A stretch of 64,000 bases of DNA from Patescibacteria group bacterium (GTDB lineage: Bacteria; Patescibacteriota; Gracilibacteria; UBA1369; PNNO01): positions 96,001 through 160,000 of the forward strand of contig JBHPIO010000001.1 in assembly GCA_042568575.1 (NCBI GenBank). The letters run 5' to 3'. The number at the start of each line of letters is the position of its first letter. The stretch's first letter is position 1. This document shows positions 33,757 through 57,850 of this stretch, in pieces. The notes under the pieces were generated by a model. The model was not told the DNA's origin and searched no databases. It saw nothing but the letters and a program-made list of their open reading frames with translations. The translations under genes were made by a program, and so were the position numbers.

Positions 33757-33900
33757 GCCGAGAAGTTTACAAGGTTTTAGAGCCGAAATCAATAAAAATT
33801 CGTAAGACAAGCACCCGCAGCAATGGTAGTAGCTGCGGGGCCAGGTTGGTAGGCTTTGAAAGAGGATCCAGACCCAATTGAATGGGCTGGAAAAGGAGGG

Positions 33901-35457
33901 TTATGGGATGATCTGGATGGTGGGGCCGTTAATAGTGCCACCAAAGACGTTCCCGACGGGGAACGGTGTGTCGTCGATGTACGTGAAGCTAGTCTGCGGT
34001 GACAGGTAGCTAAAGTTGAACGTGGAACTCTGAGCTCCTGCAGCTGTGTCGAACGTGAACCAGAACTCGGTCGACTCACAAATTGGCAAGTTTACCGTAT
34101 CTGTAAGCTCGATGATACACGTGAACACGGTGGGGTCGCTATCATTCCAGCAATCTCCCATGACCACATCTTGTGGTCCAGAAAAAACAGCCTCCTGATT
34201 CTGAGAATTGTATGCCCAGGCCTTGATGTCCAGGATGTCCTGTGGGTCGTACTGTTTGTGCAGCTGGACCGGGAAACTCCACATCTTCAGGGAGTTTTGT
34301 GGCAGCACGCTGATGCTCAGACCCGTAACGTCGTTCTCTCCGGACAGGACGTCGAAGTCCGGCGGGTTATTGGCCGAAGGCACAAAGTGAACCTCGTGCC
34401 CTGGAATGTAGCGCGTAGTCGGATTGCCGTAGTCGGGAAATTCGACAGTGCTCACACCAAAGCCATAAGTACGTCCGATCGCCTCGATATCCATGGGGCT
34501 CTCGATGATGAAACCGACTGTATCGCACGGAGTTGTGCCACTCATGGACACAACAACGCTGAAGTGATACATCATTCCGCGTGGAATGTAGAAGGCCTCA
34601 GGAAGCGTAATTACGATATAATCGCCCACTATCTCCCAATCCACGTTTAGATCTCCGGATCCGCCACCAGCATTGACGGTCATCATCACGTGGACGATCG
34701 ATGTCGCATCAAAAGTTCCGATCTGCTTCATCCTGAACCTGTACAGATCCATGTCCTCGACGGTGGCCTCAAAGATGACCTCGGTCGTCGAGGTATTCTC
34801 GTCGTTCAAGCCATTCTCCGAGACATAGGCGTCGTAGTTCAACACGCCCACAACCGCACTCGTCGTGGTCATGGGATAGCCACAGAGCGGGAACTCCGGC
34901 AGGCCGATAACGTTCACAGGCTCGCCGGTGGTAACTCCGAATGCTGGCATGTGCTCCGGGAACTCTAAACAGAAGTAGTTCTCGGAGTTTTCAACCGCGT
35001 CCATGTTCGCATAAACGTCCATGTACGCGGACTCGCCAGCTCCCAGATAGAAAGTAGTTTCGGAGAAGTCGACCTGGTTAGTCGAAGTGCTAATTCCCAG
35101 GTACGGCGTCTCCTGATCTTCATCGAAGATCACTTGCACGACGGGCATGTCATTGGCATCACCCAACCCCCTTCTCGTGAGAGTGGGGCCAATGATCTCG
35201 ACATCTTGGTCTTCCGGCGCCTTCACCAGGAAGCGCACGAAGTGAACTCGCTGCGCAACGCGCGGAATATGTCTACCTTCAGGCGTGTTCTCGTCGATCT
35301 CCACGGTGAGATCCTTATTCTCCTCCGTGTTGTTGTTATTGGCATTGGAATTGCCGTTAACGTTGTTGTTGCCGTCGTAGCCAACGCTCCTTTCGCAAGC
35401 AGCAAAGGCCATGATGATCGCCGTAACGATCGCTATAGTTCTCGCGATGTGTCCCAA
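33901..35457 (-). CDS. high-GC putative lipoprotein, acidic and beta-rich (surface-protein-like)
   Basis: AAAGGAGGG SD 6 nt before TTG at 35457; signal MGHIARTIAIVTAIIMAFAA|C; Asn-rich linker; repeated Ig-like beta segments. Confidence 0.7.
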   Translation of the reverse strand: MGHIARTIAIVTAIIMAFAACERSVGYDGNNNVNGNSNANNNNTEENKDLTVEIDENTPEGRHIPRVAQRVHFVRFLVKAPEDQDVEIIGPTLTRRGLGDANDMPVVQVIFDEDQETPYLGISTSTNQVDFSETTFYLGAGESAYMDVYANMDAVENSENYFCLEFPEHMPAFGVTTGEPVNVIGLPEFPLCGYPMTTTSAVVGVLNYDAYVSENGLNDENTSTTEVIFEATVEDMDLYRFRMKQIGTFDATSIVHVMMTVNAGGGSGDLNVDWEIVGDYIVITLPEAFYIPRGMMYHFSVVVSMSGTTPCDTVGFIIESPMDIEAIGRTYGFGVSTVEFPDYGNPTTRYIPGHEVHFVPSANNPPDFDVLSGENDVTGLSISVLPQNSLKMWSFPVQLHKQYDPQDILDIKAWAYNSQNQEAVFSGPQDVVMGDCWNDSDPTVFTCIIELTDTVNLPICESTEFWFTFDTAAGAQSSTFNFSYLSPQTSFTYIDDTPFPVGNVFGGTINGPTIQIIP

Positions 35458-35511
35458 AGTAAACCCTCCTTTAAAGGTTTTCCTCATTGTCAAAAATCAA
35501 CTTGGATTAAG

Positions 35512-35539
35512 ATTGTACTATAAATAAGCGAATAGTCAA
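35512..35539 (-). promoter_or_regulatory. sigma70 promoter of the high-GC lipoprotein gene
   Basis: TTGACT-16 bp-TACAAT. Confidence 0.6.
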
Positions 35540-35627
35540 TAGAGCGCACACGAGATTCCTCCCGGGAGGAGATTGACACAATACATTTCTTTCGTATACA
35601 TTGATCTCTTAATTTATTATTTATCAT

Positions 35628-36275
35628 ATGAAAGAAGACATCAGCCGCGAAGGCCTTACATCAGAAAAACTGCTTCAGCCATTATATTTACTCAGGCCAA
35701 AAAACAACCATGCAATAGCCAAGGTTCAAGAATTCACACAAATAAGACTTCAAAGAATAAATGAACTTCTTGGAAAAGACTACAAGGGTGCAATTTTAGA
35801 TATAGATGAGTGCACAGCCCCACATCACGGAGAGATTCTTCCAGAAAATTTAGAACATGTAGTAGAAATGATTCAAGACGGCACACGCGTAGTAATTTTC
35901 TCAAACATGAAAGCATCAGACCGATATAACGCCATTATTGACGCAACTAATGGAGCAGTCAAAGTGCATACCAGTCAATTTGCAAAACCAGATGCACGCG
36001 GGTTCTTAGAATGCTGCGATGAATTGAATCTTCTTCCTCATGAAGTAGTTATGATCGGCGACAATTTTATCACTGACGGTGGTTCAATAAGAGCTGGCAT
36101 CGACTTTATTAAGGTTGAACCAATTAAAACTGAAGGCGAATCAATTGGAAAAAAACTAAAAAGACTTCCGCAAACAGCTACAAGATGGTTTTACAGTAAA
36201 CTTTCAAATCTATACGACAAAATTTCTAAGAGAAAAGTGCTTAAGCCCGACGATATTTCTCCCAAATCTTCTTAA
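35628..36275 (+). CDS. HAD-IIIA family phosphatase (YqeG-like)
   Basis: ILDIDEC (DxD), IFSN, AKP, VMIGDNFITDG. Confidence 0.78.
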   Translation: MKEDISREGLTSEKLLQPLYLLRPKNNHAIAKVQEFTQIRLQRINELLGKDYKGAILDIDECTAPHHGEILPENLEHVVEMIQDGTRVVIFSNMKASDRYNAIIDATNGAVKVHTSQFAKPDARGFLECCDELNLLPHEVVMIGDNFITDGGSIRAGIDFIKVEPIKTEGESIGKKLKRLPQTATRWFYSKLSNLYDKISKRKVLKPDDISPKSS

Positions 36276-36504
36276 AAAAAGACAAACTAAGCGTAGAAAT
36301 CACAAAAGCAGCAGTCGGAACAATCGAATTGATAAGCGGATCTGGCAATTCAGCTACATAGAAGAAAACAACAATCACAAGATAAGTTAATACAGCAACA
36401 ATCACTTTCCGAGTGAAGCTCATTTCCCATTTTTTATTAAGCTCAACACGTTTATTGCGTTCTTGTATTTTTGTGATTTCGGATTCAATTTGTTTAAGTT
36501 CCAT
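36241..36504 (-). CDS. conserved hypothetical membrane protein
   Basis: ERNKRVE..K.WE.S.TRK then two TM helices; start at MELKQ. Confidence 0.7.
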   Translation of the reverse strand: MELKQIESEITKIQERNKRVELNKKWEMSFTRKVIVAVLTYLVIVVFFYVAELPDPLINSIVPTAAFVISTLSLSFFKKIWEKYRRA

Positions 36505-36514
36505 GGTAGTAGTA

Positions 36515-37348
36515 TTAAAAACGTTTAGTATACCCATGACAATACGGCTCATCCCCTTTTTTCTCATAATAATCTTGATGATAATCTTCAGCAGGCCAAA
36601 ACTTCCCTGCTTCACGTAATTCAGTCGCTACATCAAAGCCTTTTTCGTGCAACAATTCAATTAAACCCTCTGCAATTTTCTTCTGCTCTTCATCAATATA
36701 AAAAATAACAGAAAGATATTGCTCACCAATGTCAGGACCCTGACCGTCCTTTTGAGTAGGATCATGAGTCTCAAAAAATAATTTTGCTAGTTTCTCATAC
36801 GAAACCTGAGCAGGATCAAACAAAATCTCCAAAGCCTCAATATGCCCAGTAGTATGCGCACAAACTTCCTCATATGTTGGATTTTCTTTCTCACCACCAA
36901 TGTATCCAACTGTTGTATCAATCACTCCAGGTTCTTTTTGCATGTAATACTCAACTCCCCAGAAACAACCACCTGCAAATATCGCACGTCCAAGATCTTT
37001 CTCAGGAATAAAATTCATTGAAATTGAATTCACACAATGACGAACATTCTTCGGCGTATCCCCTTCTCCTTCAAAAACATGTCCAAGATGAGCATCGCAA
37101 CTCGCACATAAAATCTCCGTTCGCATACCATCCGCATCTGGCTCGTGTTTGATAGCACCTGGAATTTCATCATCAAAACTTGGCCAACCACAACTTGATT
37201 TAAATTTATCAGTCGATTTATACAGCAACGCATTACAACGCTTGCACGTATAAACTCCATCTTCAAAATGATCGTTATACTTGCCGGTAAAAGGAGCTTC
37301 CGTCCCTTTGTTAACGATTACGTCTTCTTCTTCAGGAGTTAATTTCAT
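36515..37348 (-). CDS. msrAB: bifunctional methionine sulfoxide reductase MsrB-MsrA
   Basis: MsrB (GTEAPFTG, CGWPSF, HLGHVF, RHCVNS) followed by MsrA (AGGCFWG, HDPT, AEDYHQDY). Confidence 0.95.
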   Translation of the reverse strand: MKLTPEEEDVIVNKGTEAPFTGKYNDHFEDGVYTCKRCNALLYKSTDKFKSSCGWPSFDDEIPGAIKHEPDADGMRTEILCASCDAHLGHVFEGEGDTPKNVRHCVNSISMNFIPEKDLGRAIFAGGCFWGVEYYMQKEPGVIDTTVGYIGGEKENPTYEEVCAHTTGHIEALEILFDPAQVSYEKLAKLFFETHDPTQKDGQGPDIGEQYLSVIFYIDEEQKKIAEGLIELLHEKGFDVATELREAGKFWPAEDYHQDYYEKKGDEPYCHGYTKRF

Positions 37349-37350
37349 AA

Positions 37351-37581
37351 TTAAACGAAAATAAGGTACAAAAGTAGCACAAACGCTATCGTCCAATAAG
37401 TTGTCCAGAAAATATTATAAAACTTGTCCGTTTCATTTTTGAAAATCTTCGCAGGCGGCCAATAATATTTTTTCGACATAGACTTACTCTGATTTCCAAA
37501 AAAGCACTCAATGACATGCAGATGTAAATCATAGAAAACCATGACTGCCAAAATGATTGTAATTACTTCTTTAGTACTCAT
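37351..37581 (-). CDS. small two-TM hypothetical protein
   Basis: translationally coupled between its neighbours; two hydrophobic segments. Confidence 0.6.
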   Translation of the reverse strand: MSTKEVITIILAVMVFYDLHLHVIECFFGNQSKSMSKKYYWPPAKIFKNETDKFYNIFWTTYWTIAFVLLLYLIFV

Positions 37582-38126: not shown

Positions 38127-38189
38127 ATTTTTAACATTAATTACTTCTCTGATATACTACCAACAAAGCATCTCCTAACAAACTTAAAA

Positions 38190-39548
38190 ATGCTGAAACG
38201 AACTCTCGCAATCATACTTTCTATTTCATTGATTGCTCTTAGTGGTGTACCTGCTTTTGCAGCAGGCGGTGCATGTTCTTATCACGACGGAATTGACTGT
38301 CTTACAGGCCCGGACACCGACGGTAGTGTAATTTGTAATGATGGCTGGAAAGCTGATTCGACATCATACTCAAGTGTGAAGTCAGCGTGTGGCGAAGATT
38401 ATCGTCCTTTTGCTGATGTTGATTCTTCAACCGAATATAACGAAGCTATTATAACTCTCTATGAGAAACAAGTGATTATCGGTTATCCAGATCAAACTTT
38501 CAAACCTTATAGTTTTATTAATCGTGCCGAGTTTTTAAAAATCCTTGTTGAAGGAAACGGAATCACTCCAGACGCAGATGTATACAAAGACTGTTTTCCT
38601 GACGTAACTGACGATTGGTACGCACCCCACGTGTGTTATGCAAAAGAGCAAGGATGGGTTGAAGGTTATCCAGACGGACAATTTAAAGCTACACAAAACG
38701 TAAACAAAGCAGAATCTATTAAAATGATTATCGAAATTCACGAATACAGCGATCTACTTCCTGAAATCGTTGAAGAAAGCAAGTACGAAGATGTTGCTAT
38801 GGATGATTGGTTCGCTCCGTATGTGCAAGTTGCTTACGATAAAGCGTTTATCATCCAGGAAATTTCATACTTAAATCCTGCTGACTTTATGACACGAGCA
38901 GGTATCACAGAAATGACATACCGCAGCATGATGGTTAAAGAATTCAATCTTGATACATTCCTCGATTACGATCCTCTTGATGAAGTAGTGCCAATTCCTG
39001 AACCAACTGTAATACTTAATTACTCATCAGAAAATCGTGCGATCGGTGAAGCTAACGCACCGATTGTAATTGTCGAATATAGCGATTATCAATGTCCTTT
39101 CTGCCAAAAACAGGCGGAAGAAGTTATTGCTAACCTAAAAATCGATTACATCGCAACTGGAGACGTATACTATGAGTTTAAAGACTTCCCTCTTGCGTTC
39201 CATACAAACGCAGCTACAGCAGCTATGGCAACAAATTGCGCAGCCGATCAAAACGCATTCTGGGAAATGCACGACATGATCTTCGAAAATCAAAGCGAAT
39301 GGTCATATTCTGAGGATGCTTCAGTTGAGTTTGAAAATTACTCAGATACTATTGGATTAGACTTAGAAGATTTTTCATTCTGCATGGCAGAAGAAACTCA
39401 CCTTGCTGACATCGAGGCTGACAGAGAAGCAGGAGTTGCAGCAGGCGTTACTGGAACACCCGCAATGTTCGTAAACGACGAACTATTTCTTGGCGTACAG
39501 GATTACACTACTTTAAGTGAATATTTAGACACCCTTCTTAGCGAATAG
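38190..39548 (+). CDS. secreted protein with Cys-rich N-terminal domain, SLH repeats and a DsbA-like thioredoxin domain
   Basis: signal peptide; ACSYHDGIDC..VICNDGW; GYPDQTFKP..INRAE and GYPDGQFK SLH repeats; EYSDYQCPFC, FPL..H, GVTGTP. Confidence 0.85.
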   Translation: MLKRTLAIILSISLIALSGVPAFAAGGACSYHDGIDCLTGPDTDGSVICNDGWKADSTSYSSVKSACGEDYRPFADVDSSTEYNEAIITLYEKQVIIGYPDQTFKPYSFINRAEFLKILVEGNGITPDADVYKDCFPDVTDDWYAPHVCYAKEQGWVEGYPDGQFKATQNVNKAESIKMIIEIHEYSDLLPEIVEESKYEDVAMDDWFAPYVQVAYDKAFIIQEISYLNPADFMTRAGITEMTYRSMMVKEFNLDTFLDYDPLDEVVPIPEPTVILNYSSENRAIGEANAPIVIVEYSDYQCPFCQKQAEEVIANLKIDYIATGDVYYEFKDFPLAFHTNAATAAMATNCAADQNAFWEMHDMIFENQSEWSYSEDASVEFENYSDTIGLDLEDFSFCMAEETHLADIEADREAGVAAGVTGTPAMFVNDELFLGVQDYTTLSEYLDTLLSE

Positions 39549-39891
39549 ATTCCCGAATCTTCTTTGGAAGTTTCGCAAAAACAAGTTCATACGAATGATC
39601 GACAAGTTCTCTAACCAGCTTGTCGGTCATTTCTTTTTCCTCAACACTCACTGTATTCCAATGGTCCTTATTCATGTGATAACCGGGCACAACAGCCTTG
39701 TGCTTTTGTCGCAACGCCATCGCAAAAATAGGATCGCATTTGAGGTTCACAGTACACGGAGTTTTGTTGATATTCGTTAGAGCAAACATTTTGCCACTAA
39801 CACGAAAAACAAGCGTCTCGTGATCAAATGGAAAGTCACAAGTAGCTTTCGGCTTTGAAAGACAATGTTTTTTAAGTTGATTGATGTTCAT
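39538..39891 (-). CDS. MmcQ/YjbR family DNA-binding protein
   Basis: PF....VFRV.GKMFA, NLKCDP, PGYHMNK.HWNTV, SYELV. Confidence 0.92.
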   Translation of the reverse strand: MNINQLKKHCLSKPKATCDFPFDHETLVFRVSGKMFALTNINKTPCTVNLKCDPIFAMALRQKHKAVVPGYHMNKDHWNTVSVEEKEMTDKLVRELVDHSYELVFAKLPKKIRESIR

Positions 39892-40126
39892 CAGGTGAAC
39901 TTAAGGCTATTGCTCTAATGGATATTCTCTTTCCGTCTGCCACAGATTCCTTCATACATCCTATTAACGCATTAATGCCACGACGCTCGAATTTGCTTAC
40001 AAATTCTGCAACAATTATTGCAGGATCTTCCTCTGGATATCTTTTTGGAGTTTCGAAATCAGTTTCGCCATCTCTTCCCAATGCAATTTCTATTCTAGCC
40101 ATCTCTTCGTCTAAAATTGTGAACAT
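39872..40126 (-). CDS. hypothetical protein
   Basis: 84-aa ORF with an upstream TTGACA..TATAAT promoter at about 40161-40188. Confidence 0.45.
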   Translation of the reverse strand: MFTILDEEMARIEIALGRDGETDFETPKRYPEEDPAIIVAEFVSKFERRGINALIGCMKESVADGKRISIRAIALSSPDEHQST

Positions 40127-40202
40127 AATAATTTTGGTAATATTTGATTAAAGGAGATGATTATATTTGATCACCAGATTATGTCAAGCAATGTTTGATA
40201 TC

Positions 40203-42974
40203 TTATTTCTTTTTATCTGCATCTTCCTTCTTTGGCGTCTCCGGCTTTTTCTCAGCAGCAGGCTTCTTATCCGCTACAGGCTTCTTTGGCGCATCACTCT
40301 TCAGCGCAGGTTTCTTATCACTAGGCTTCGCTTCTGGAAGTTCTCTCTTTGGTGGCGGTGAACTCCATCTTTTAATTTTATCCTCAACCATCTCACGTTT
40401 TGATGTATATCGTTCACGAACTACTTTCAAAATCTTATCACGACGACCTTCTTCAACATCATACTCGGGCGGTGGCAATGTATCGTACGAGAATGTCTTT
40501 GATGGCATTCCATCAACCAGAACCTTACTGTACGCGGTATATTTGCTCAAATTAACTAAATCGTTCGGAAGTGCCTCTTCACCAAACTGCGAAGATAGAT
40601 ATTCAGCATCATCAAATCCAACCTGGAATGAAATTGTAGATCCCACATTACCAAACACAGCATCACGAACTTCATCCGGCATTTGCGCAATATACTGATT
40701 CGCCATTGTTAAATTCAAATGATATTTTCGAGCCTCGGAAAGAATTGTCGCAAACGACTCTGTAGCAAAATTCTGGAACTCATCCACATATAAATAGAAA
40801 TCTTTACGATCTTTTTCAGGAATATCAGCACGACTCATCGCATCGATCTGGAACTTTGTAATAAGCATCGCACCAAGAAGCTGCGAATTGTCTTCACCAA
40901 GTTTACCTTTAGATAAATTCACAATAATGATCTTTCCACGATCCATCGCAAATCTCAAATTAACAGTTGATTTTGGCTGTCCCACAATATTTCTAATAAT
41001 TGGACTCGCAAGGAACTGACCCACTTTATTCAAAATAGGAGAAATCGCCTCAACACGCATTCTATCCTGCATAACTTCAAATTCCTTTTCCCAGAAAGCC
41101 TTCACAACTGGATCTTCAATCTTGCGCACAACTTTACGTCTAAAATCACGATCCTGAAGGATTCGCGTAATTCCAAGCATCGTTGTATTCGGATATTCAA
41201 GTAACGAAAGAATTGTGTTCCTTAATATATGTTCAAGACGTGGACCCCAACTATCCGCATAAATCTTTTTAAAGATTCCAACAAGTCCGGAAGAAATAAT
41301 CGTATTTAAAGAAGGATCAGCTGTTTCCAGCATATTAAACGCAATAGGGAAATCACGATCTGAAGGATCAAACACAATCACATCATTTGTTCTCTCCGGC
41401 GGGATATAGTTCAAAACAGCATCGGCAAGATCTCCATGAGGATCAATCACACCAACACCTTTCCCGGCCTTTATATCTGAAAAAATCATATTCTCGAGCA
41501 GAGTCGTTTTACCCATCCCGGTCTTCCCAATAATGTACATGTGACGACGCCTATCTAACGTTTTGATTCCAAATGTTTCCTTAATTCCTCTAAAGTTTGT
41601 TCGCCCAAGTGTTGTAAGCTCTCCCTGCTCCCTTCCAAGTATAGGAAGATCAACAGGCGGCTCAAGCTTTCGCGATTTCACCCAATAAATGTTTGGTGTT
41701 GAAACCGACATATTCGGTAAATGATAAATTGTCGCAAGCTCCTCAACATTCAATACAAAAGGATCATCAATCACACGATGACGATACCTATCAATTGCAT
41801 CTTTGCCTTTAATATATTGTCCGATTTTAAATCCGTTTAATTGCGGTATATTAAACTGTTTAAACGAACCTGCAATTTCCCGAAGTTTAATTTTTGCAGC
41901 CTCTGGGTTTTTATCTTTTTGAACATAAACTATTCTGATGTTTGCTTCATAAAGCAGCTTAACTACCTTATCCATCGCAGCAGAAGTTGAGGTTTCTCTT
42001 TCATGACTTCTTGAAGTTAAATCTTCGATATCCTGCTCACTACCACCCGAATCTGCAGTACTCTGAAAAGACATCTTAGTACCAGCCTTAAGTCCATGAA
42101 TCCACAAAATAAAATAAACAGGAAAGAAAACAATTCTCTTTAATCTGCTTCGTGTACAAAAAACTCTAGTGTAAGCCTTTTGAAAAGTCTCAATGTTAGA
42201 CCAAATTCCTTTTCCGACTATACGAACACATTTTGTAAAAAGAACTCTCCATTTATCAGAAAGCGGACGAACAACAACCTGCACCCAGGCCTGCTCATTT
42301 ACATCATATAGTTTCGCAAGCGTTGCTGTAATTCCCGAAATCGGATCAACTGAAGTTCTTGTAATCTTATCTTCCAATTGAACGTAACGTTTTACCGGGA
42401 AAATATCCGGATCTGTAAAAGTAAGTTCAACTCCAACACTATTCTTATATAGATCATAATTCTCAAAATGCCTTTTCTTCTGAATTGGTGGAAGGCTATC
42501 TATAGCAATCATTGCCTTTTCTTCTGTTTGATGTGCCTGACCCACAACTGGAGCCTGCGCAATCTCAATTTCTTGTGGCGAAGCATAATCCTCTACTTCA
42601 TTGATCTCGACATCAGGATATTGCGCATAAATCTGTCCTTCAATAAAATTCTTATATTTTGCGGGAAATGAGAAGTAAAATTTAATATGACTTCCGATAT
42701 TCGCAATTTCAAGACTTATCCTGTCCTGAGAAGCACCAAACAATCGTTTCCAAAAAGATATCTTCTTGTATATTCCGTGAAGCGACGAAAATATCTGCTC
42801 GGCTACAATTGGCCCTGTTTCGTTTTCTTTGGAGACGCGCACCTCTAGAATTGTGAACTTTTTTGTGAATTGACGCTTTTCCTGAAGCTTTCTTGCAAAA
42901 AGTTCTAGCAAAATTAGGAGTACGTATACACCTATTAAAATAATTCCGATTGTTGCGATTAGAGACATATCCAT
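40203..42974 (-). CDS. VirD4/TraD/HerA-like P-loop ATPase with N-terminal TM
   Basis: RRHMYIIGKTGMGKT, DPHGD, WGPRLE, LYVDEFQNF, LSEARKY, NQY; Lys/Pro/Ala-rich tail. Confidence 0.88.
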   Translation of the reverse strand: MDMSLIATIGIILIGVYVLLILLELFARKLQEKRQFTKKFTILEVRVSKENETGPIVAEQIFSSLHGIYKKISFWKRLFGASQDRISLEIANIGSHIKFYFSFPAKYKNFIEGQIYAQYPDVEINEVEDYASPQEIEIAQAPVVGQAHQTEEKAMIAIDSLPPIQKKRHFENYDLYKNSVGVELTFTDPDIFPVKRYVQLEDKITRTSVDPISGITATLAKLYDVNEQAWVQVVVRPLSDKWRVLFTKCVRIVGKGIWSNIETFQKAYTRVFCTRSRLKRIVFFPVYFILWIHGLKAGTKMSFQSTADSGGSEQDIEDLTSRSHERETSTSAAMDKVVKLLYEANIRIVYVQKDKNPEAAKIKLREIAGSFKQFNIPQLNGFKIGQYIKGKDAIDRYRHRVIDDPFVLNVEELATIYHLPNMSVSTPNIYWVKSRKLEPPVDLPILGREQGELTTLGRTNFRGIKETFGIKTLDRRRHMYIIGKTGMGKTTLLENMIFSDIKAGKGVGVIDPHGDLADAVLNYIPPERTNDVIVFDPSDRDFPIAFNMLETADPSLNTIISSGLVGIFKKIYADSWGPRLEHILRNTILSLLEYPNTTMLGITRILQDRDFRRKVVRKIEDPVVKAFWEKEFEVMQDRMRVEAISPILNKVGQFLASPIIRNIVGQPKSTVNLRFAMDRGKIIIVNLSKGKLGEDNSQLLGAMLITKFQIDAMSRADIPEKDRKDFYLYVDEFQNFATESFATILSEARKYHLNLTMANQYIAQMPDEVRDAVFGNVGSTISFQVGFDDAEYLSSQFGEEALPNDLVNLSKYTAYSKVLVDGMPSKTFSYDTLPPPEYDVEEGRRDKILKVVRERYTSKREMVEDKIKRWSSPPPKRELPEAKPSDKKPALKSDAPKKPVADKKPAAEKKPETPKKEDADKKK

Positions 42975-43917: not shown

Positions 43918-44066
43918 CTTATTTAATATTTAGATTGTAAAAATAAAGCAGGGATACGATAGAGGAAAAACACGTTGTTGTAAATGGAAAATTTATTTAA
44001 ATTTGGGAAAGCTTCCGACCGAAAGGTGGGACGACTGCCGGCAGGAACCTGCGGCGGGACGTACGG

Positions 44067-44267
44067 TCATTTAGAACGACCGGAAGCTTGGGAAGGGCCA
44101 TGAATCGCCCTCGACAGGGAGAAACCTTCTTCTCCCAGGCGCGGGACCTGTGCTCGTAGGATCTGCCATCTCCTTTCGCGCTGTTTTGGAGTTCTGGCAC
44201 TATCGGCTTGATATGCCATCCCCAACAAATTCCATGATCTACACATCAGCGTTCTTTCACTCGGCAT
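44067..44267 (-). CDS. high-GC small basic hypothetical protein (66 aa)
   Basis: GAGGAGGTG SD before ATG at 44267; promoter upstream; high GC. Confidence 0.55.
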   Translation of the reverse strand: MPSERTLMCRSWNLLGMAYQADSARTPKQRERRWQILRAQVPRLGEEGFSLSRAIHGPSQASGRSK

Positions 44268-44315
44268 CGTCACCTCCTCGAGAAATACATGCCCTTGTTT
44301 ATAGAAACCATACGA

Positions 44316-44343
44316 ATTCTAATAGTTATTAGTAATTTGTCAA
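44316..44343 (-). promoter_or_regulatory. sigma70 promoter
   Basis: TTGACA-16 bp-TAGAAT. Confidence 0.65.
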
Positions 44344-44371
44344 GCTCCACCTGGGTGGAATCTAAAATTTC

Positions 44372-46240
44372 CTAATTAAAATACCACTCATCCAGCCTGC
44401 AAAATCTATCTGCAGGGAAAGCCAAATCCTCCATTTGAATACCACTAACTTTCCCGTCGCTGGCATAGTAATAAACCGGTCTGTAAAGGAAAATTGCCGG
44501 AATGTCATCCTGAATAACTTTTGCAAGTTGCTCTGATTTAGCCAGCTTTTCTTCATCATTAAACGTGTTTCGAATTTGTTCAATTAAAGTATCAACCTGG
44601 AAACTTTTGTAATTTGAAAGATTCAATCCAGTTTCTGACGCCTGAGTCGAATGCCAATATCCATAAAGATCCAGATTGTATCCAAGTCCCTGGCCAAACA
44701 AAAGCATGTCGTAGTCACGCGTTCGGATCTTTTCCTGCAAAGTTTCTGAATCGTAAAGCTCGATATTTAATTTAACTCCTGCCTTAGACCAGTTCTCTTC
44801 AAGATAATTAAGAACCGTAGCGGTTTCTGTGTATTTATAAGTGTTCTCCGGATATAAACGTGCAATTAAACGGAATTCCAACACTTGTCCGCCTGCATTC
44901 TTTCGTAGAATAGTTTTTTCCTCTTCTGGAAGTTCTTCCTCGACAGGCTCAGTAACCTCTTCAGTTGCCTCTTCAACGACTGGTTCATCAATCTCGACTG
45001 TATCAGTCTCCGCTGCAACCTCTTCGGTTGTGGCATCCTCAGCTGCCTCTTCCTCACTGGTTGCTTCTTCAGCCACCTCTTCAGCAGCAGCAGCTTCCTC
45101 AGCAGCAATTTCATCTTCTAAAACAAACTCTTTAAATCCTGCGTTATCTAAAAGCTTCATTGCATCATCCATGTTTGCTTTATATCGCCATTCAATTTGA
45201 TTCAAACTTAGAACCGGTGTTTCAACTGGAATCGTATTTGGAATTTGCTCACGGAATGCATCTTTAAAGATTGCCTTCTGTAATGCCTGCCTAACCTTCA
45301 AACTTTTAAGATTAGGATTTTCCATATTCATAAATACCGCATTATACTGCGGCAGAGAGTATCCATATAGAGAGAAACGCGAATCCTGTGAAACAGATTC
45401 AATAGCTTCGTCTGTTAATTTTGCAATCGCATTTATAGAATTTTTATTTTCCAACAAAACTTGCCTTGTAGGATATCCAAAGAACCGAATATTTTGAATT
45501 TGAGGCTTTACGTCATAATAATATTCAGACTGCTCAAGAACAACCTGCGTAACCCCTGTCATTGTATTTATTAAAGGAGAACTAATTTTATAAGGACCTG
45601 TCCCGATCGGATTAAAATTAAACTCATGAGTAAATAAATCCGCAACCAAAACGTCACCTAAAACATGTTGAGGCAAAATTCCAACATTCGTATTTGTTAT
45701 AAAGAAAGAATTTGGCGCGCTCAGTTTAAACGACACACTCATTTCGTCGATCTTGGTAATTTCAATTCCTTCAAAATTCGATTTTAATATTGGATTTTGG
45801 AAATCAGGAGCCTGAACAACATCATGGAAAGTAAAATAAACATCATCCGAGGTAACAGCCTCACCATCATGCCAAAAGAGCCCACTCCTTAAAGTGAATA
45901 TATAAGTTAAATGATCCTCGCTAATCACTACATCAGCCATGTCCGCAACTATTTTCTTTGTACTTGGATCGTATTTAGTAAGACCTGTGAATACTAACTC
46001 ACTCACATCTCTGTCAGACGCATTTAAATCAGCATAAACAGGGTTAATTCTCAATATGCTTGTCTGGAATCCTTCTGTATAAATACCTTCTGCACCTGCA
46101 ACCTGAACACCATATCCAAGTTTTCCATATACATATTTTCCTGCAATCGCTACAAAAGCTACAACAAGAATTATGCTCACGATCTTTTCAACGCCCGAAT
46201 ATGACTTTAGAACGCGGACAAATGTTGAGGGTTTCTTCAT
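44372..46240 (-). CDS. peptide ABC substrate-binding protein (family 5) with an acidic insertion
   Basis: YIFTLR...WHDG...TSDDV.FT, PIGTGPY, VRQAL, WHS.Q, LNLS.Y. Confidence 0.88.
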   Translation of the reverse strand: MKKPSTFVRVLKSYSGVEKIVSIILVVAFVAIAGKYVYGKLGYGVQVAGAEGIYTEGFQTSILRINPVYADLNASDRDVSELVFTGLTKYDPSTKKIVADMADVVISEDHLTYIFTLRSGLFWHDGEAVTSDDVYFTFHDVVQAPDFQNPILKSNFEGIEITKIDEMSVSFKLSAPNSFFITNTNVGILPQHVLGDVLVADLFTHEFNFNPIGTGPYKISSPLINTMTGVTQVVLEQSEYYYDVKPQIQNIRFFGYPTRQVLLENKNSINAIAKLTDEAIESVSQDSRFSLYGYSLPQYNAVFMNMENPNLKSLKVRQALQKAIFKDAFREQIPNTIPVETPVLSLNQIEWRYKANMDDAMKLLDNAGFKEFVLEDEIAAEEAAAAEEVAEEATSEEEAAEDATTEEVAAETDTVEIDEPVVEEATEEVTEPVEEELPEEEKTILRKNAGGQVLEFRLIARLYPENTYKYTETATVLNYLEENWSKAGVKLNIELYDSETLQEKIRTRDYDMLLFGQGLGYNLDLYGYWHSTQASETGLNLSNYKSFQVDTLIEQIRNTFNDEEKLAKSEQLAKVIQDDIPAIFLYRPVYYYASDGKVSGIQMEDLAFPADRFCRLDEWYFN

Positions 46241-46836: not shown

Positions 46837-46924
46837 GTCCTATGAGGTTTAATAAATAGTCGAGTGAAAGTATAGGGAAAATAGAGAAAAAATTCCAGTA
46901 GTTTTAATAATTATTAAAAAATTC

Positions 46925-46952
46925 TTGACGAATATCGAATTAGAACTATAAT
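46925..46952 (+). promoter_or_regulatory. sigma70 promoter
   Basis: TTGACG-16 bp-TATAAT. Confidence 0.7.
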
Positions 46953-47043
46953 GCGGCCAGTTGTAAATCTAAGCTCTTCGCAACTATGCGAAGGTGCAGG
47001 ATTCATGCATCGCTAATTCACAAACAGGACACGGAGGGAAAGA

Positions 47044-47340
47044 ATGCAGCGTTTCAGGATTGTGAACCATCAGCAAAACCCCGACATGACAGCACTAAGT
47101 CAGAAGAAAAAGAAGTTGCGCTTCTCATTTGCCGTCCAAATCGATGCGGGTGGCAAAGATCGACCGCCCATCACGAAGATGATCACTGTGAAGGCTTCGA
47201 CAGTGACTCGCAAGAACGGGAAATTCGTGATCAAGGCGCAAGTCCAGAGCTCGTCAGCCGCAGAGATCGCCAAAGGTGCGGCCGTGAAAGTGAGCAGCTA
47301 CAGCCCCAACCTCAAAAACGGGGATCTTACGGTCAACTAG
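47044..47340 (+). CDS. high-GC small basic hypothetical protein (98 aa)
   Basis: GGAGG SD at 47033; GC-ending codons; beta-rich, Lys-rich. Confidence 0.65.
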   Translation: MQRFRIVNHQQNPDMTALSQKKKKLRFSFAVQIDAGGKDRPPITKMITVKASTVTRKNGKFVIKAQVQSSSAAEIAKGAAVKVSSYSPNLKNGDLTVN

Positions 47341-47440
47341 ACCACGGCTCACAGCGCCACTTCAAACGGACTCGGAATGCAAACACCCTTTAACTGCGTA
47401 GCGGTGCCTATCCAGCGGCACACAACCACAAAAAAATCAC

Positions 47441-47476
47441 AAAAGCGGATTAGATTGGAGGATGTGCCGCTTTTTG
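47441..47476. terminator. probable bidirectional terminator between 47044 and ileS
   Basis: AAAAGCGG ... CCGCTTTTT inverted repeat with a long loop. Confidence 0.5.
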
Positions 47477-47484
47477 TAATACGT

Positions 47485-50400
47485 CTACTTCTCCCTCCTT
47501 ACTCCAAGAACAACTTTATGTCCGTCAACTTCAACGGTTTCTTCTAATTCCCACGTAAATTCACTTCCTTGCTGCAATTCAAGTCCAAGGGTTTCTCGTT
47601 TAATGTAGTCAGCAAAATCAGTTACGGCTTGTTCGACATCTCCATCTGTTTTCACCTGAACATAGATGCGCTCAAACACCTCAAATCCCGCTTTCTTACG
47701 CATTTCCTGAATGTATCTGATGATTTCACGAGCATATCCTTCCGATTTTAATTCCGGCGTTATTGTTGTATCTAAAACAACAACAAATCCTGCTTCACCT
47801 TGGACGTCATATCCTTCTTTTCCTTCAAATCCAACTTCAAACTCGTCTTTTTCCAAAGTTACATCGCCAACTTTTATTCGTCCATCTTCAAGCTCTTCAA
47901 AATCACCAGATTTTACCGTTTGGATAATTTTTTGAACATCCTTTCCATGCTTTGGTCCAAGTTTTCGAGCATCCGGCCTAACAACTTTAGTAACGATATC
48001 CCCTACTTCAGTTAACACGTGAAGCTCTTTAACGTTTAGCTCTTCCGTAATAACATCCTTTGACGCCTCAACTATTGCATGATTTACGCTATCAGGCAGA
48101 CCAATTTGAACCTTAGCAAGCGGCTGACGCACCTTAACTCCACTTTTTGCCCTAACACTATGCCCAAGATTCACAATTCTTCTAACAACAGCCATTTCTT
48201 CATTGAGAGACTTATCAATCTTTTTCTTATCCGCAACAGGCCAATCACACAAATGAACCGACTCTTCACACGCCTTGCATGATTTGCTCAAATTTCTATA
48301 CATCTCATCCGCTACAAACGGCATAAAAGGAGCAATCAATTTTGAAAACTCTTTTAACACAACGTAAAGAGTTTGATATGCCTCGTTCTTATCATCATCA
48401 TTTTCCGATTTCCAAAAACGCCTTCGACTTCTTCGGATATACCAGTTCGACAAGTTATCAACAAATTCAATCATAGGACGAGTTCCTTTTGTAAGATTGT
48501 ATGCATCTAATTCCTTTGTCGACTCTTCAGTTAACTGGTGAAGCTCAGATATAATCCACTGATCCAATTTATGCTTTGGCTCAAAATCTCCATTTATCTT
48601 TCCAGGATGCCATTTGTCGATATTCGCATAAGTCACAAAGAAACTGTACGTATTCCATAGTGTTAATAAGAATTTCTTTATCATCTCATCAACATGCGCT
48701 TCCGAGAAACGAACATCTTCCGCAAGTGGCGCAGTCGACGAATAAAGGAAGAATCTAACTGCATCAACCCCTCGAGTATCAAAAAGCATATTCGGATCCG
48801 GATAATTCTTCTTTCGTTTTGAGAGTTTTTCTCCATCCGCAGCAAGAAGTATTCCGTTTACAATCACATTTTCAAAAGCCGACGAATCAAACAGGATAGT
48901 TGCAATCACATGCAGTGTATAAAACCATCCGCGAGTTTGATCGAGCCCTTCTGCAATAAACTGAGCAGGGAAATTCTTTTCAAACTCCTCTTTATTTTCA
49001 AAAGGATAATGAAGCTGCGCATACGGCATTGATCCACTTTCGAACCAACAATCAAGCACTTCGGGAATTCGTTTCATAGATTTTCCACACTTCTCACATT
49101 TAAGTTCAACACTATCAATATATGGCTTATGTAAATCCAAATCACCATGGCGCTCCGGGATTTTACCTCCCGATTTTTCCTTAAGATCATCAACAGATCC
49201 AACACAGGTTTTATGATCACATTCCGTACATTCCCAAATCGGAATTGGACATCCCCAGAATCTATTACGAGAAATCGCCCAATCTCGAGCTCCTTCAAGC
49301 CATTTTCCGAATCGTCCTTCCTGAATATGTTCAGGCTGCCAATGAATTTTCTTATTGTTAGCTTGAAGTTTATCTTTGATATCAGTAACACGAATGAACC
49401 ACGACTTAGTTGTAAAATTAAGCAGTGGAGTATCACATCTCCAACAATGAGGATACGAGTGACGATAATTTTCTTTGCTAAACAAAAGCCCTTCTTCGTG
49501 AAGCCACGTCATAATGTTTTGATCCTGACTTTTCACAAATTTTCCTGCCCACGGCTTAACATCATCAACAAAAGTTCCATCCATATGTACGTGTTGAAGC
49601 ACCTCAAGATCATGTTTCTGACCAAGATGCAGATCATCCTCACCAAACGCAGGAGCAATGTGTACAACACCAGTTCCATCCTCAGTCGACACAAAGTCGG
49701 CAAGCAAAATTACGTATGCTTTTTTCTCTAGTTTGCCTTCAAAAAACGGAAATAGAGGTTTGTACTCTTTTCCTTCAAGAGATTTTGGATCAACATCTTC
49801 CAAAACTTCATAAGGTGTATCCCCCATCACTTTTTCAACTAAATCTTTTGCAAGAATATATTTCTCATTTTCTACAGCAATTTTCACATATTTAACATCT
49901 CCTCCAAACGCAAGCGCAACATTCCCCGGAAGCGTCCAAGGAGTTGTTGTCCATGCAAGAACAAAGGTGTCCGACTCATCTTTTAATGGAAACTTAGCAA
50001 TCACAGAAAGATCCGTAACATCTTTGTATCCCTGACTCACCTCAAAATTCGATAAAGGCGTCTCGCATCTTGGACAAATGTGCATACTTTTGTGCCCCTG
50101 GTAAACCATATCTTTATCCCAAATCTGCTTAAATACCCACCAAATCGATTCCATGTAGTTATTCTCCAGTGTTGCATAACTCTCGCTTGTATCAACCCAT
50201 CGTCCGATTCTTCTTAGGAGCTTTTCCCATTCTTCCGTATACGTAAACACACTTGCACGACATTTGTCGTTAAAGTTCTCCAATCCATATTCTTCGATTT
50301 CTTTTTTACCTGAGATTTCTAGTTCTTTCTCAATTTCATATTCAACAGGAAGTCCATGACAATCCCAACCATTTGTTCGTGGAACGTAATATCCCTTCAT

Positions 50401-50868: not shown

Positions 50869-50930
50869 TTTACCTGTACTTTTAGCACAGATAAAGTCTA
50901 CCACGAAAGCTTTAAAATGCAAGTTGGAAA

Positions 50931-52274: not shown

Positions 52275-52400
52275 AATATTTTGTGTTAATTTTTGTTTTA
52301 CCATCATATTATTTTAGCATATTTTAGACATTTTGTTAAGCCCTAACCTTGACATAGCTCTCATTTTCCGTACAATTACCTCCAATCTAAATTATTTACT

Positions 52401-54831: not shown

Positions 54832-54838
54832 TTTTAAT

Positions 54839-55291
54839 TTAGTTAAATTTAGCTTTAATACTTTTGATATGTTCTGCAACACGCTTTTTAAGTTCTGGAT
54901 CGCTGTTACTTAGAATTCTCGTTACTGCCATAGCCGCATTTTGTGGATCAACAACCGTTAAAACAGGTGTATCTGAGGGCATTTGAAGTGTCGAATGCAT
55001 ATTAATAAGCATATCCTCTTTGCCAGAAAATGGAGGACAAGCAATAACAGGATGATTACTATTTGCTGCCACAACTCCAGAAAGACCGTTTGAACGACCA
55101 GCAATTGTTATATAACAGATATCTTCATCAGACTCGTTATATTTCTGAACGACTTCAAAAACTTTTTCAGGAACTTTATGAGCGGAGGCAACTGTGATTT
55201 CGTAAGGAATTTTCCATTCATCAAGAATGTTTGTGATTTTTTCAGCGAATACTTTATCAGATTCGCTACCCATAAGTATTGGAACTAACAT
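54839..55291 (-). CDS. purE: AIR carboxylase PurE (class II-like)
   Basis: ILMGSESD, SAHK, AGRSNGL, PVIACPP, STLQMPS. Confidence 0.92.
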   Translation of the reverse strand: MLVPILMGSESDKVFAEKITNILDEWKIPYEITVASAHKVPEKVFEVVQKYNESDEDICYITIAGRSNGLSGVVAANSNHPVIACPPFSGKEDMLINMHSTLQMPSDTPVLTVVDPQNAAMAVTRILSNSDPELKKRVAEHIKSIKAKFN

Positions 55292-55303
55292 ATTGTTTGC
55301 GGT

Positions 55304-56272: not shown

Positions 56273-56486
56273 TTGTATTTTGAATTAAATAGTATGTGTG
56301 TCTTAAATTTATATTAATTGTTGGAAAGGATCAATGTTGATTTTGCATGTCGAAAAACCACTTTTCAATTAAAGCGGATTAGGGGTTTTCAGGGCGGCTC
56401 AAACAAATAAATGCTTAAGCGCGCCCCGATAGCCCGAGTTTCAGACGGATTATAGGTGCGCGAAACGCGCGAGGTGGGTCGAGAGG

Positions 56487-56963
56487 TCAGCGGCGGATGG
56501 ACTTGGGCGTGAGCGTGGCCTGGATCGCGAGTCGCCTCACGCGAATCTCGGGCATGCTGGGACAGGACTTCTGCACCGGGAGGACGCAGTCCAAGGCGCG
56601 CCCCCAAAGGTCTTGCTGGAGCCACTTGCTCAGCTGGCCCGCCGGGACGGTACGCATCTTGTCGCGATAGGCCTTAATTTTCTTCAAATCCTGGTGGCCA
56701 ATCCAGCCCTTCGTGGAGTGCGGGTCAGGCCACTTGCACTCGAACTTCACGGGTATGGGGCCGCGCGATTTCGCGAGCACCTCGATCTTGCACTGACGCA
56801 TCTCGAGTTGGATCGCGATGAACCACCTCGCCCTGGGTGTCTCGTTGATGACGCGATTCTCGTACTTGAAGTTGATCTTCGCCGGCTTGGGCTTCTGCAC
56901 AGTCGCCGCACAGCCACCGAGCATCATCACGGCCACGATCATTCCGATGTTTCTCAGCTTCAT
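56487..56963 (-). CDS. high-GC basic putative lipoprotein
   Basis: AGAGGAG SD; MKLRNIGMIVAVMMLGG|C lipobox; Lys/Arg-rich. Confidence 0.72.
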   Translation of the reverse strand: MKLRNIGMIVAVMMLGGCAATVQKPKPAKINFKYENRVINETPRARWFIAIQLEMRQCKIEVLAKSRGPIPVKFECKWPDPHSTKGWIGHQDLKKIKAYRDKMRTVPAGQLSKWLQQDLWGRALDCVLPVQKSCPSMPEIRVRRLAIQATLTPKSIRR

Positions 56964-56994
56964 CTCTCACTCCTCTGTTTTACGGGGCGTACCC

Positions 56995-57648
56995 CTACTT
57001 GGTTCTTCTTACGCCTGGCGGTGGTTCCACCAAGCGACTACGTTTCTTGAACTCCTGATGTGCCTTCCTCAAGCATCTGATGCGCTTGGCAGGCAACGGA
57101 AACATCATGCAGATCGACTGATGACTGTTTCTGGTGCAGAGATACGGCAAGCCGTCCCTGTACTTCACCATCATCAGTTGGTGCATAGCAGCCTTCTTGG
57201 CCCAGGTGCCAAACTTGACACCGTTCGACACCATAATCAAGGGTATGAGTTTACCCGATGTCGGACACTTCTTGTGGTGAGTCGTCAGGCTATAGACCGG
57301 AATCGGGTGGATGTACGTAACCGTTCGATTCGGAAACTTGCACACCACGGCGATCTTGGAAGAGTCCCGAATGTAGATAAAGAAGTTTCCGCAGTAGGGA
57401 TTCGCACCCCATGCGGAAATCCAGATCTGAAAGGACTTCCAGACTCTGATGTTCATCTGCCTATACTTCTCGCGCTCCATCGCCTTCTCGATGTCAGGAC
57501 ACTTGGACCGCTTCACGACTTCTACGTCTGCACATGACGATTGTTGATTTGCCCTCCAGCAAGTCAGATATGAACCATTCGAACAAACCGGACCGCAGCC
57601 ACTTAGCAGCAGTCCGATCGCCATCGCAGTCAAAACCAAAGTCTTCAT
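56995..57648 (-). CDS. high-GC Cys-rich basic putative lipoprotein
   Basis: AGAGGTGAT SD; MKTLVLTAMAIGLLLSG|C lipobox; many Cys. Confidence 0.72.
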   Translation of the reverse strand: MKTLVLTAMAIGLLLSGCGPVCSNGSYLTCWRANQQSSCADVEVVKRSKCPDIEKAMEREKYRQMNIRVWKSFQIWISAWGANPYCGNFFIYIRDSSKIAVVCKFPNRTVTYIHPIPVYSLTTHHKKCPTSGKLIPLIMVSNGVKFGTWAKKAAMHQLMMVKYRDGLPYLCTRNSHQSICMMFPLPAKRIRCLRKAHQEFKKRSRLVEPPPGVRRTK

Positions 57649-57821
57649 GAGATCACCTCTTTCGTTTCGTTATTTGTATGCGAGCACTTCTGGCTCGCAA
57701 TTTTCCGTCTTTTTCTCGGGATTACCACCGGCAACACCGCATGAACCAAAAAAAATCAGTATCAGGGAGTTACCTGGCAGTAAGCCAAGAAAAAGTTTGT
57801 CAAAGGACAAAAAAGGTTACC

Positions 57822-57850
57822 ATTACACCATAACCAAGCCGCGAAGTCAA
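57822..57850 (-). promoter_or_regulatory. sigma70 promoter of the lipoprotein pair
   Basis: TTGACT-17 bp-TGTAAT. Confidence 0.5.

Follow-up and report, generated by a model that had tools for sequence, protein, structure and literature searches.

Introduction

Horizontal gene transfer and genomic islands are common in Patescibacteria, and competence pili have been proposed as a route for them (PMC12455944). In the present study we analysed a window of 64,000 nucleotides (G000:C1:96001-160000, where G000 is the genome that carries it), in which an earlier note, made from the sequence alone, had described four GC-rich islets whose genes have strong Shine-Dalgarno (SD) motifs. The islets resemble the islands of that paper in their setting, a small streamlined genome with many acquired segments. 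Compared with the islands as they are presented in the part of the paper drawn on here, the units of the window are different in being short (0.4-1.8 kb), in having a single gene and no mobility genes, and in their initiation signal. We propose that the window islets are recent horizontal imports which joined a functional minority regime of SD-led genes, and we put the probability of this reading at about 0.6.

Several other systems are similar in one respect or another. Phage morons are autonomous units of promoter, gene and terminator with odd composition that lie between other genes and often encode lipoproteins or surface proteins. The islets are likewise self-contained atypical units between unrelated genes, with the reservation that their motifs are consensus matches whose total count equals that expected by chance. 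They differ from morons in being flanked by housekeeping genes (ileS, purA, purC and rplI) and not by a prophage, and they have no phage matches. Similar to integron cassettes, the islets are single-gene units of heterogeneous composition, but they have no common attC-like boundary, no integrase was seen, they are scattered instead of arrayed, and they have their own promoters. The amelioration model of foreign DNA, which is reportedly that of Lawrence and Ochman, agrees with strain-specific islets whose composition and signals are unlike those of the recipient, and with the AT-adapted, SD-less DUF4215 homologues found in relatives. It does not agree with two loci described below, an M23 peptidase gene and a DUF4215 gene, which hold a GC content at third codon positions (GC3) of 0.6-0.8 despite saturated synonymous sites, in genomes where native genes have a GC3 of about 0.3.

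Regarding translation initiation, the Bacteroidota are an SD-poor lineage with SD-independent initiation, and the ribosomal protein bS21 is part of the mechanism in Bacteroidia. The corresponding family, Ribosomal_S21, was not found in G000, which is uninformative since the genome is 82% complete. The native leaders of G000 are similar to those of SD-poor lineages, being A-rich, G-depleted and SD-less. Some Parcubacteria are without the anti-SD motif (PMC9297842). Unlike these, as far as they are described in the part of that paper used here, the lineage of G000 keeps the anti-SD and conserves SDs on a minority of its genes. A limited literature search found no description of such a dichotomy between SD-less native and SD-led GC-rich genes, nor of conserved SD-led GC-rich genes in the Candidate Phyla Radiation (CPR).

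Results

Strong SD motifs on the islet genes

In 400-nt windows, the GC content was 0.472-0.550 across islet 1 (33601-35600), 0.497 at islet 2 (44001-44400), 0.495 at islet 3 (47201-47600) and 0.610, 0.540 and 0.510 across islet 4 (56401-57600), whereas the remaining windows were mostly at 0.31-0.42. The four islets therefore stand out from their flanks as the earlier note had claimed, with 47-61% GC against about 37% in the background. The open reading frames (ORFs) of islets 1, 3 and 4, the last with two tandem genes called 4a and 4b, have GC3 values of 0.67-0.85 and only 0.39-0.44 GC at second codon positions (GC2), and the main mode of GC3 in the genome is about 0.28. This asymmetry between codon positions indicates that the ORFs of these three islets are genuine genes from a GC-rich background.

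The 16S rRNA of G000 ends with GATCACCTCCTTTCT, which has the canonical anti-SD. The motifs ahead of the five proposed starts pair with this anti-SD at -12.5 kcal/mol for islet 1 (AAAGGAGGG), -14.8 kcal/mol for islet 2 (GAGGAGGTGA), -10.0 kcal/mol for islet 3 (GGAGGG), -11.9 kcal/mol for 4a (AGAGGTGA) and -9.4 kcal/mol for 4b (AGAGGAG), whereas the native controls ileS, tyrS, pilB, pgk and purA, identified via Pfam or their translation, are between +2.7 and -0.7 kcal/mol. Both halves of the claim, strong SDs at all five islet starts (-9.4 to -14.8 kcal/mol) and none at the five controls, were thus borne out. An SD was called strong if it paired at -9 kcal/mol or lower with the genome's own anti-SD ahead of any candidate start within the first 60 codons, and such an SD was found for 2 of the 54 native ORFs of at least 100 amino acids (aa) in the window. 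The islet genes have the SD 5-10 nt before the start and complementary to the 16S 3' end of their own genome, and are predicted to be initiated in an SD-dependent manner. The earlier note had taken the motifs as a possible sign of tuning for the translation machinery of another organism. Nothing points to such machinery, and the anti-SD of the genome's own 16S rRNA is canonical.

Empty sites in related genomes

The islets were compared with G001, a relative of the same genus, and with G002-G005, which represent four other genera. The window flanks are matched in G001 at 81-87% nucleotide identity, and at islets 3 and 4 the two flanks meet there to the base. Islets 2-4 are missing between conserved flanks in G002-G005, where the site of islet 4 has 149-496 bp between the same flanks. 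Islet 1 lies within a 3.77-kb segment (33797-37570) that is not present in G001. An exact empty site for it was not obtained, and synteny in G003 and G005 was insufficiently conserved. Neither a target duplication nor an inverted repeat was seen at the islet junctions in the comparison with G001.

The site of islet 2 is occupied in G001 (C17:19190-19882) by an unrelated segment of 692 bp with about 40% GC, whose minus strand has an open frame of 194 aa or more. Since unrelated segments are found at the exact same site, this site has turned over in both genomes.

A genome-wide class of GC-rich, SD-led genes

The G000 assembly has 1.203 Mb in 31 contigs with 38.3% GC, and its completeness and contamination are estimated at 81.8% and 0.19%. 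With a crude caller of our own, a set of 1000 ORFs was collected from it, all 100 aa or longer and none overlapping another. The share of ORFs with a strong SD was 2% at GC3 up to 0.25, 4% at both 0.25-0.30 and 0.30-0.35, 7% at 0.35-0.42, 24% at 0.42-0.55 and 81% above 0.55. The bimodal class that the earlier note had suggested looking for does exist, as high GC3 goes together with an SD (81% above 0.55 versus 2-7% below 0.42). In a curated set of 23 high-GC genes, 83% had a strong SD, compared with 13-22% at shifted control positions and 4% of 936 native genes. The association between high GC and SD is far above chance. In the high-GC genes the SD position peaked at -13 to -9, whereas the first starts of native genes had no positional peak and showed even less SD-like pairing than internal positions did (2% versus 13% at -6 kcal/mol or lower). 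In a 400-kb sample of G006, a closed single-contig genome of the same family, a strong SD was found in 3% of 331 native ORFs, which is equal to the shifted control, and the leaders were again A-rich and G-poor. SD use is hence not common across the genome, as the earlier note had stated, and is likewise rare in G006.

About 32 GC-rich islets were found in G000, scattered over many contigs and amounting to 47,215 bp or 3.9% of the genome. An all-against-all BLASTN search of these islets with 300-bp flanks found no common sequence or boundary among them; it returned just overlaps between adjacent islets on C7, the repeat similarity of DUF4215 genes and two matches of 24-25 nt at chance level. 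The idea that the islets are cassettes was rejected, as the 32 have no boundary sequence in common. One of the GC-rich patches, G000:C7:8360-11419, has overlapping ORFs of extreme codon-position composition (e.g., GC2 of 0.21-0.26 with GC1 or GC3 of 0.7-0.86), which suggests a low-complexity or repeat protein region.

Old members of the class

Two members of the class are found throughout the family. The M23 peptidase gene (G000 C6) has orthologues with 49-76% identity in 11 of 12 family genomes. In all 10 genomes analysed it is syntenic, with both flanking genes kept in the nine others. All 10 copies have an SD (-8.0 to -12.4 kcal/mol), a similar leader and a signal peptide. Their GC3 is 0.37-0.81, the values of 0.37-0.44 being those of two genomes. 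Within the leader, the part some 30-120 nt ahead of the M23 start aligns across the 10 genomes in a pattern that resembles coding sequence. Judging from the sequence, the SD may lie inside the 3' end of an upstream ORF, and the gene may be translationally coupled to it.

The other old member is an 816-aa DUF4215 gene (G000 C2), with positional counterparts between the same flanks in G005, G006, G008, G010 and G011. All six copies are GC-rich, with GC3 of 0.63-0.75 versus 0.29-0.43 in the flanks, and in all six an SD-like motif (-6.2 to -10.7 kcal/mol) precedes the start with the signal peptide. The identities track the genus grouping and the flank gene: copies of one genus share 65%, those of another share 36-45%, and comparisons with G000 give 28-32%. 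AT-adapted DUF4215 genes (GC3 0.12-0.35) with A-rich, SD-less leaders were also found in the family (G008:C2, G002:C116 and G005:C4), indicating that the GC-rich, SD-led state is not tied to the DUF4215 domain.

The synonymous divergence (dS) of the conserved flank gene was 0.84 between G000 and G001 and saturated between genera. Many pairs in these runs returned -1, meaning not computable because of saturation, and the pair flankL G000-G001, with a nonsynonymous divergence (dN) of 1.9, is an alignment artefact and was ignored. According to the amelioration model, the GC3 of a donor does not passively survive such synonymous turnover. By this reasoning, together with the synonymous saturation, the high GC3 of the M23 and DUF4215 genes would be held by selection or by a biased process. 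The SDs conserved on these vertically inherited genes suggest that the ribosomes of the lineage use SDs. Since two members are found family-wide with a conserved SD, the class goes beyond recent accidents.

Cargo and relatives of the islet proteins

A Pfam family was found for none of the five window islet proteins, whereas 12 of 20 further islet proteins match one (E <= 0.01). These families comprise three DUF4215 repeat proteins, a weak TSP3 repeat, SLH, an OPT transporter, GT87 and the M23 peptidase with Golvesin_C, and on the metabolic side a FadB-like enzyme, a thiolase, an enoyl-CoA hydratase and a zinc alcohol dehydrogenase. By heuristic patterns, exported proteins are over-represented in the class: a signal-like N-terminus was found in 15 of 23 high-GC genes versus 240 of 936 native genes, and a lipobox in 5 of 23 versus 33 of 936; these counts omit the two islet 4 lipoproteins, for which the picker took an overlapping spurious frame. 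G000 encodes two copies of Lgt and one LspA, all above the Pfam cut-off, as well as ComEC, and pilB and pilC are present. Uptake of DNA and maturation of lipoproteins by the organism itself are thus plausible.

Homologues of the window proteins were sought with a word-index search of 5.8 billion proteins for islet 1, islet 3 and 4a and with a full HMMER search of 1.84 billion representatives for 4b. The 4a protein had one relative, P0001, with 66% identity on a metagenome contig of 1434 bp, and a search of 400 further genomes of the phylum did not find it. The search for 4b returned itself and one marginal match (E 7e-4), and that for islet 3 only itself, in an 84-aa form. For islet 1, only the protein itself was found among proteins of near length. 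A point in favour of the earlier note's reading is that none of these protein-collection searches found a near-identical homologue in a donor. Scans of metagenome contigs (for 4a and P0001), four scans of viral contigs, and scans of plasmid DNA and phage proteins also returned nothing. The AlphaFold2 models of 4a (from a 2-sequence alignment) and 4b (from a single sequence) had mean predicted local distance difference test (pLDDT) scores of 37.5 and 45.2, too low for a fold search, and 4a had no usable match in the ESM Atlas. The islet 3 protein had a Pfam match to Levi_coat (Levivirus coat) which was below threshold and not significant (E 0.084, 13.3 bits versus a cut-off of 25).

The islet 1 protein has a signal peptide and, by pattern, the lipobox AFAAC. 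Over about 470 aa it is 27-33% identical to the middle of frames of 1211-1268 aa in 8 of 12 family genomes, which are of native composition (40-43% GC). The one relative examined, in G006, has a signal peptide and an SLH domain, whereas the islet 1 protein has no SLH and a lipobox instead. Fold look-alikes in the ESM Atlas came mostly from CPR phyla, with scores below 0.9 and TM-scores up to 0.52, and are leads only. These relatives, with SLH there and a lipobox here, suggest that the islet 1 protein is a shortened, lipid-anchored variant of a surface protein of the lineage, in a foreign composition.

Among the other islets of G000, the OPT, 583-aa, 605-aa and 358-aa proteins all had no match in the 12 family genomes searched, and the 368-aa protein had only SLH-domain matches there. 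The FadB-like gene had one weak match in 40 relatives and one partial match in 400 genomes of the phylum. Its only named relative, found by a scan of genome contigs, is in a Candidatus Kerfeldbacteria metagenome-assembled genome (JBDRKW010000006.1, 2944-4971; 41% identity), where the gene has GC3 0.91 and a GGGAGG SD and its neighbours have GC3 of about 0.57 and SD-less, A/T-rich leaders. The arrangement thus recurs in a CPR lineage of another name. The IleS of that genome is 48% identical to that of G000, and the FadB-like gene there is the sole named relative of an islet gene. In G006, GC-rich SD-led genes were seen for a 203-aa secreted protein (G006:C1:19767-20378, GC3 0.92) and for two lipoproteins encoded in tandem (212 and 167 aa; G006:C1:186675-187874). 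The islet 4 pair has no homology to these two (E 2.5 and 15).

Features of the window islets and their neighbourhood

The features of the four islets are collected in Table 1. In islet 1, the SD sits 30 nt downstream of the in-frame ATG at 35487, whose leader is A/T-rich. Since it lies downstream of this ATG, the SD would serve the TTG start at 35457.

Table 1. Positions of islet features and of two gene loci in the window (window coordinates)
Feature	Position	Strand	Remarks
Islet 1	33797..35575	minus	GC-rich insert, one gene; left edge is the end of G001 homology at 33796, right edge from the GC drop and the sequence
Islet 1 ORF	33901..35487	minus	putative lipoprotein, 518-528 aa; ATG 35487, in-frame SD-led TTG 35457, stop 33901; GC3 0.67
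Islet 1 SD	35465..35473	minus	AAAGGAGGG; 6 nt ahead of TTG 35457
Islet 1 promoter-like site	35512..35539	minus	TTGACT-N16-TACAAT; consensus match 10/12
Islet 1 terminator candidate	33814..33839	minus	hairpin CCCGCAGC-N10-GCTGCGGG, then T-rich; read by eye, inside left junction; terminator scan negative
Islet 2	43994..44371	minus	GC-rich segment of 378 bp; edges from G001 comparison
Islet 2 promoter-like site	44343-44316	minus	consensus match 11/12
Islet 3	46916..47485	plus	insert of 570 bp (promoter, SD, ORF, hairpin and T-run); flanks abut in G001
Islet 3 promoter-like site	46925..46952	plus	TTGACG-N16-TATAAT; consensus match 11/12
Islet 3 ORF	47044..47340	plus	98 aa; GC3 0.69; SD GGAGGG at 47033-47038; no signal peptide; ORFan
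Islet 3 terminator candidate	47414..47476	plus	long-loop hairpin, then TTTTT; by eye; scan negative
Islet 4	56346..57851	minus	insert of 1.5 kb, two tandem putative lipoprotein genes; flanks abut in G001
Islet 4a ORF	56995..57648	minus	217 aa; lipobox LLSGC; GC3 0.67; SD AGAGGTGA at 57653-57660
Islet 4b ORF	56487..56963	minus	158 aa; lipobox MLGGC; GC3 0.85; SD AGAGGAG at 56970-56976
Islet 4 promoter candidate	57822..57850	minus	TTGACT-N17-TGTAAT; by eye, inside right junction; fails scanner rule
Islet 4 terminator-like stem	56358..56377	minus	followed by TTTTT; by scan; 3' end of islet 4
Coupling-protein gene	40203-42974	minus	VirD4/TraG-like, 923 aa (HerA/DUF87, TrwB_AAD_bind, TraG-D_C); between islets 1 and 2
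Type IV pilus cluster	6825-13587	plus	PilB-like T2SSE ATPase, PilC-like T2SSF, small ORFs with pilin-like N-termini (GFTLIE/GFTLVE)

The earlier note had assigned a near-consensus promoter to each islet. Matches of 11/12 in islets 2 and 3 and of 10/12 in islet 1 lie at the 5' ends, as claimed, whereas the candidate of islet 4 fails the scanner rule and the total number of promoter-like sites in the region (36) equals chance (35.2). As the best matches are placed at the 5' ends of islets 1-3, it is their position that the comparison suggests to be noteworthy, not the total count. The putative lipoproteins are three, as stated before, with the lipoboxes AFAAC, LSGC and LGGC recognised by pattern only.

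Islet 2 is different from the other three. Its ORF of 66-68 aa has a perfect SD but a GC3 of 0.49, without the excess of the others (0.67-0.85), so that of the five genes counted originally four hold and this one is doubtful. Nothing was found in Rfam at E <= 1, and with fold z-scores of -1.10 and -1.04 its predicted structure does not exceed shuffled sequences in stability. Islet 2 probably comes from the same kind of DNA as the other islets, as a piece that is non-coding or has decayed.

The genes flanking the islets are ordinary, with RidA, a HAD hydrolase, MsrAB, a serine hydrolase, DsbA-SLH, YjbR, rplI, ileS, purC and purA among their products. Neither the islet proteins nor 20 proteins encoded in their neighbourhood matched a transposase or integrase family in Pfam, and ARAGORN placed no tRNA next to any window islet. 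The statement that transposases, integrases and flanking repeats are missing thus agrees with Pfam and BLASTN, with the qualification that islets 1 and 2 have a gene for a VirD4/TraG-like coupling protein between them. This gene is kept in G001 at 86% nucleotide identity. Two segments of native composition differ in G001 as well: 33797-37570, with the HAD hydrolase and MsrAB, is absent, and 38134-40335, with DsbA-SLH and YjbR, is replaced by 105 bp. Since these two are missing in G001, the neighbourhood is rich in insertions and deletions beyond the GC-rich islets. The genes of the type IV pilus cluster have A/T-rich, SD-less leaders. Elsewhere in G000, the 23S and 16S rRNA genes are unlinked, about 20 kb apart (G000:C1:178596-181589 and 202067-203530). 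L30 was not found in this genome, which is 82% complete, and uL30 has been reported missing from all CPR (PMC9297842). Together with the small genome size, the unlinked rRNA genes and the CPR affinity of relatives and look-alikes, this makes G000 a probable member of the CPR.

Discussion

Origin of the islets

We propose that the four islets are independent, strain-specific insertions of foreign DNA at intergenic sites of a small AT-rich genome, probably of CPR/Patescibacteria type. Three of them appear to be self-contained, with a sigma-70-like promoter, a strong SD, an ORF of GC3 0.67-0.85 and a hairpin terminator, and their predicted cargo would be three lipoproteins and one small protein. 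G000 itself would read the genes through its canonical anti-SD and mature the lipoproteins with Lgt and LspA. The presence of ComEC and pilus genes, with no mobility signatures, suggests entry by natural transformation and illegitimate recombination. The donors would be GC-rich, SD-using organisms inside or outside the phylum, and the products would be expressed and function in the envelope. Recent acquisition best fits the strain specificity, the exact empty sites, the mixed composition, the unrelated cargo and the metabolic genes that are rare in the phylum. The earlier note had argued against four independent recent transfers. The separate loci without a common sequence, their differing composition, the empty sites and the negative search for 4a in 400 other genomes of the phylum speak against that view. 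The conserved minority regime of SD-led genes is the probable reason that the organism can express and retain such imports, and the SD/GC signature may be more than a mere relic.

Several points weigh against recent import. No donor was identified for any window islet by the protein, phage, plasmid, viral and metagenome scans, and the relatives and fold look-alikes of islet 1 are CPR surface proteins. The islets could come from a CPR-internal pool kept GC-rich by some force. Relatives may also have lost the islets, although with five independent absences a gain is the more parsimonious reading. The gene set and its starts come from a crude ORF caller, which missed the islet 4 genes because of an overlapping spurious ORF. 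GC richness with an SD is by itself no proof of recent transfer, since the M23 and DUF4215 genes are not recent imports. Recent import does not account for the way GC-rich, SD-led genes have persisted in a lineage that is AT-rich and SD-poor.

The most serious competitor follows from these points, and we consider it clearly less probable than recent import. Here the islets would belong to a lineage-intrinsic, CPR-internal pool of envelope genes, held GC-rich and SD-led by a gene-specific force and moving among related strains with no GC-rich donor phylum involved; selection on mRNA or translation, or GC-biased gene conversion at often-recombining loci, are candidate forces. The M23 gene, syntenic in 10/10 genomes with GC3 up to 0.81, an SD in every copy and dS saturated between genera, agrees with this, as does the DUF4215 locus, GC-rich in 6/6 with a divergence pattern that tracks the flank gene. 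The islet 1 protein is related to SLH surface proteins of the family, its fold look-alikes are mostly from CPR, and most transfers are stated to run between Patescibacteria (PMC12455944; from the part of the paper drawn on here). However, the search for 4a in 400 genomes of the phylum was negative, the FadB-like gene had one partial match in those 400, and OPT, like three more of the islet proteins, had matches in 0/12 family genomes. The proposed force is not universal, as the SD-less, AT-rich DUF4215 genes and the M23 copies at GC3 0.37-0.44 in two genomes indicate. A quite different possibility, raised in the earlier note, was that the genes are adapted to translation in a GC-rich host, to which they are delivered as DNA or mRNA for expression. 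A codon composition and SD unlike the native regime, the VirD4/TraG-like gene in the window, the failure to identify donors and the fact that most window genes are ORFans would all suit this idea. It is nevertheless very improbable. The genome has its own canonical anti-SD, SDs are conserved on vertically inherited syntenic genes, the signal peptides and lipoboxes fit the organism's own Sec, Lgt and LspA, and the heterogeneous cargo includes ordinary beta-oxidation enzymes, a membrane transporter and a glycosyltransferase. The coupling protein is kept in G001, which has none of the islets, and since they are missing in this genome of the same genus the window islets are not a conserved effector set. 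Given the organism's own anti-SD, conserved SDs, Lgt and LspA, delivery to a host is an unnecessary assumption.

That the islets are GC-rich pieces of another organism spliced in by assembly or binning deserves equally little credence. The draft has 31 contigs and 81.8% completeness, but as the native flanks join up in G001, with base precision at islets 3 and 4, a misassembly would need two exact switches per islet, within 0.6-1.5 kb, in a genome with an estimated contamination of 0.19%. Similar islets are also present in the closed single contig of G006, and members of the class are syntenic in 6-10 genomes. It is just as unlikely that the islets are genes for structured RNAs, or non-coding elements of another kind, with spurious ORFs. 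RNA genes often account for GC-rich patches in AT-rich genomes, and islet 2 has no coding signature; against this, 4a has a protein relative with 66% identity and the four other ORFs combine GC3 of 0.67-0.85 with GC2 of 0.39-0.44. RNA genes were rejected for islets 1, 3 and 4, as Rfam at gathering thresholds and ARAGORN gave the same two tRNAs in the window, both of them elsewhere.

Implications

The CPR or Patescibacteria are a large and mostly uncultured diversity, and little is known about their gene expression and host-contacting surface. The combination of initiation signal and composition is a simple sequence marker for an accessory set of surface proteins. The M23 and DUF4215 genes offer a tractable case for separating GC-biased conversion from synonymous selection in streamlined bacteria, and the strain-specific islets may point to the partners of such organisms, if their donors can be named.

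The SDs conserved on syntenic genes imply that the retained anti-SD is used, and that initiation is dual-mode and not simply SD-free. As a tentative extension, which we hold to be possible but not yet probable, the family would have two initiation regimes: about 96% of genes would be SD-free, a small class of mostly exported envelope proteins would stay SD-led and GC-rich under a gene-specific force (selection acting on the mRNA or on translation, or GC-biased conversion), the anti-SD would be retained for this class, and imports that fit would be recruited into it. If the class is co-activated, e.g., on contact with a host, it would constitute a translational regulon for the cell surface.

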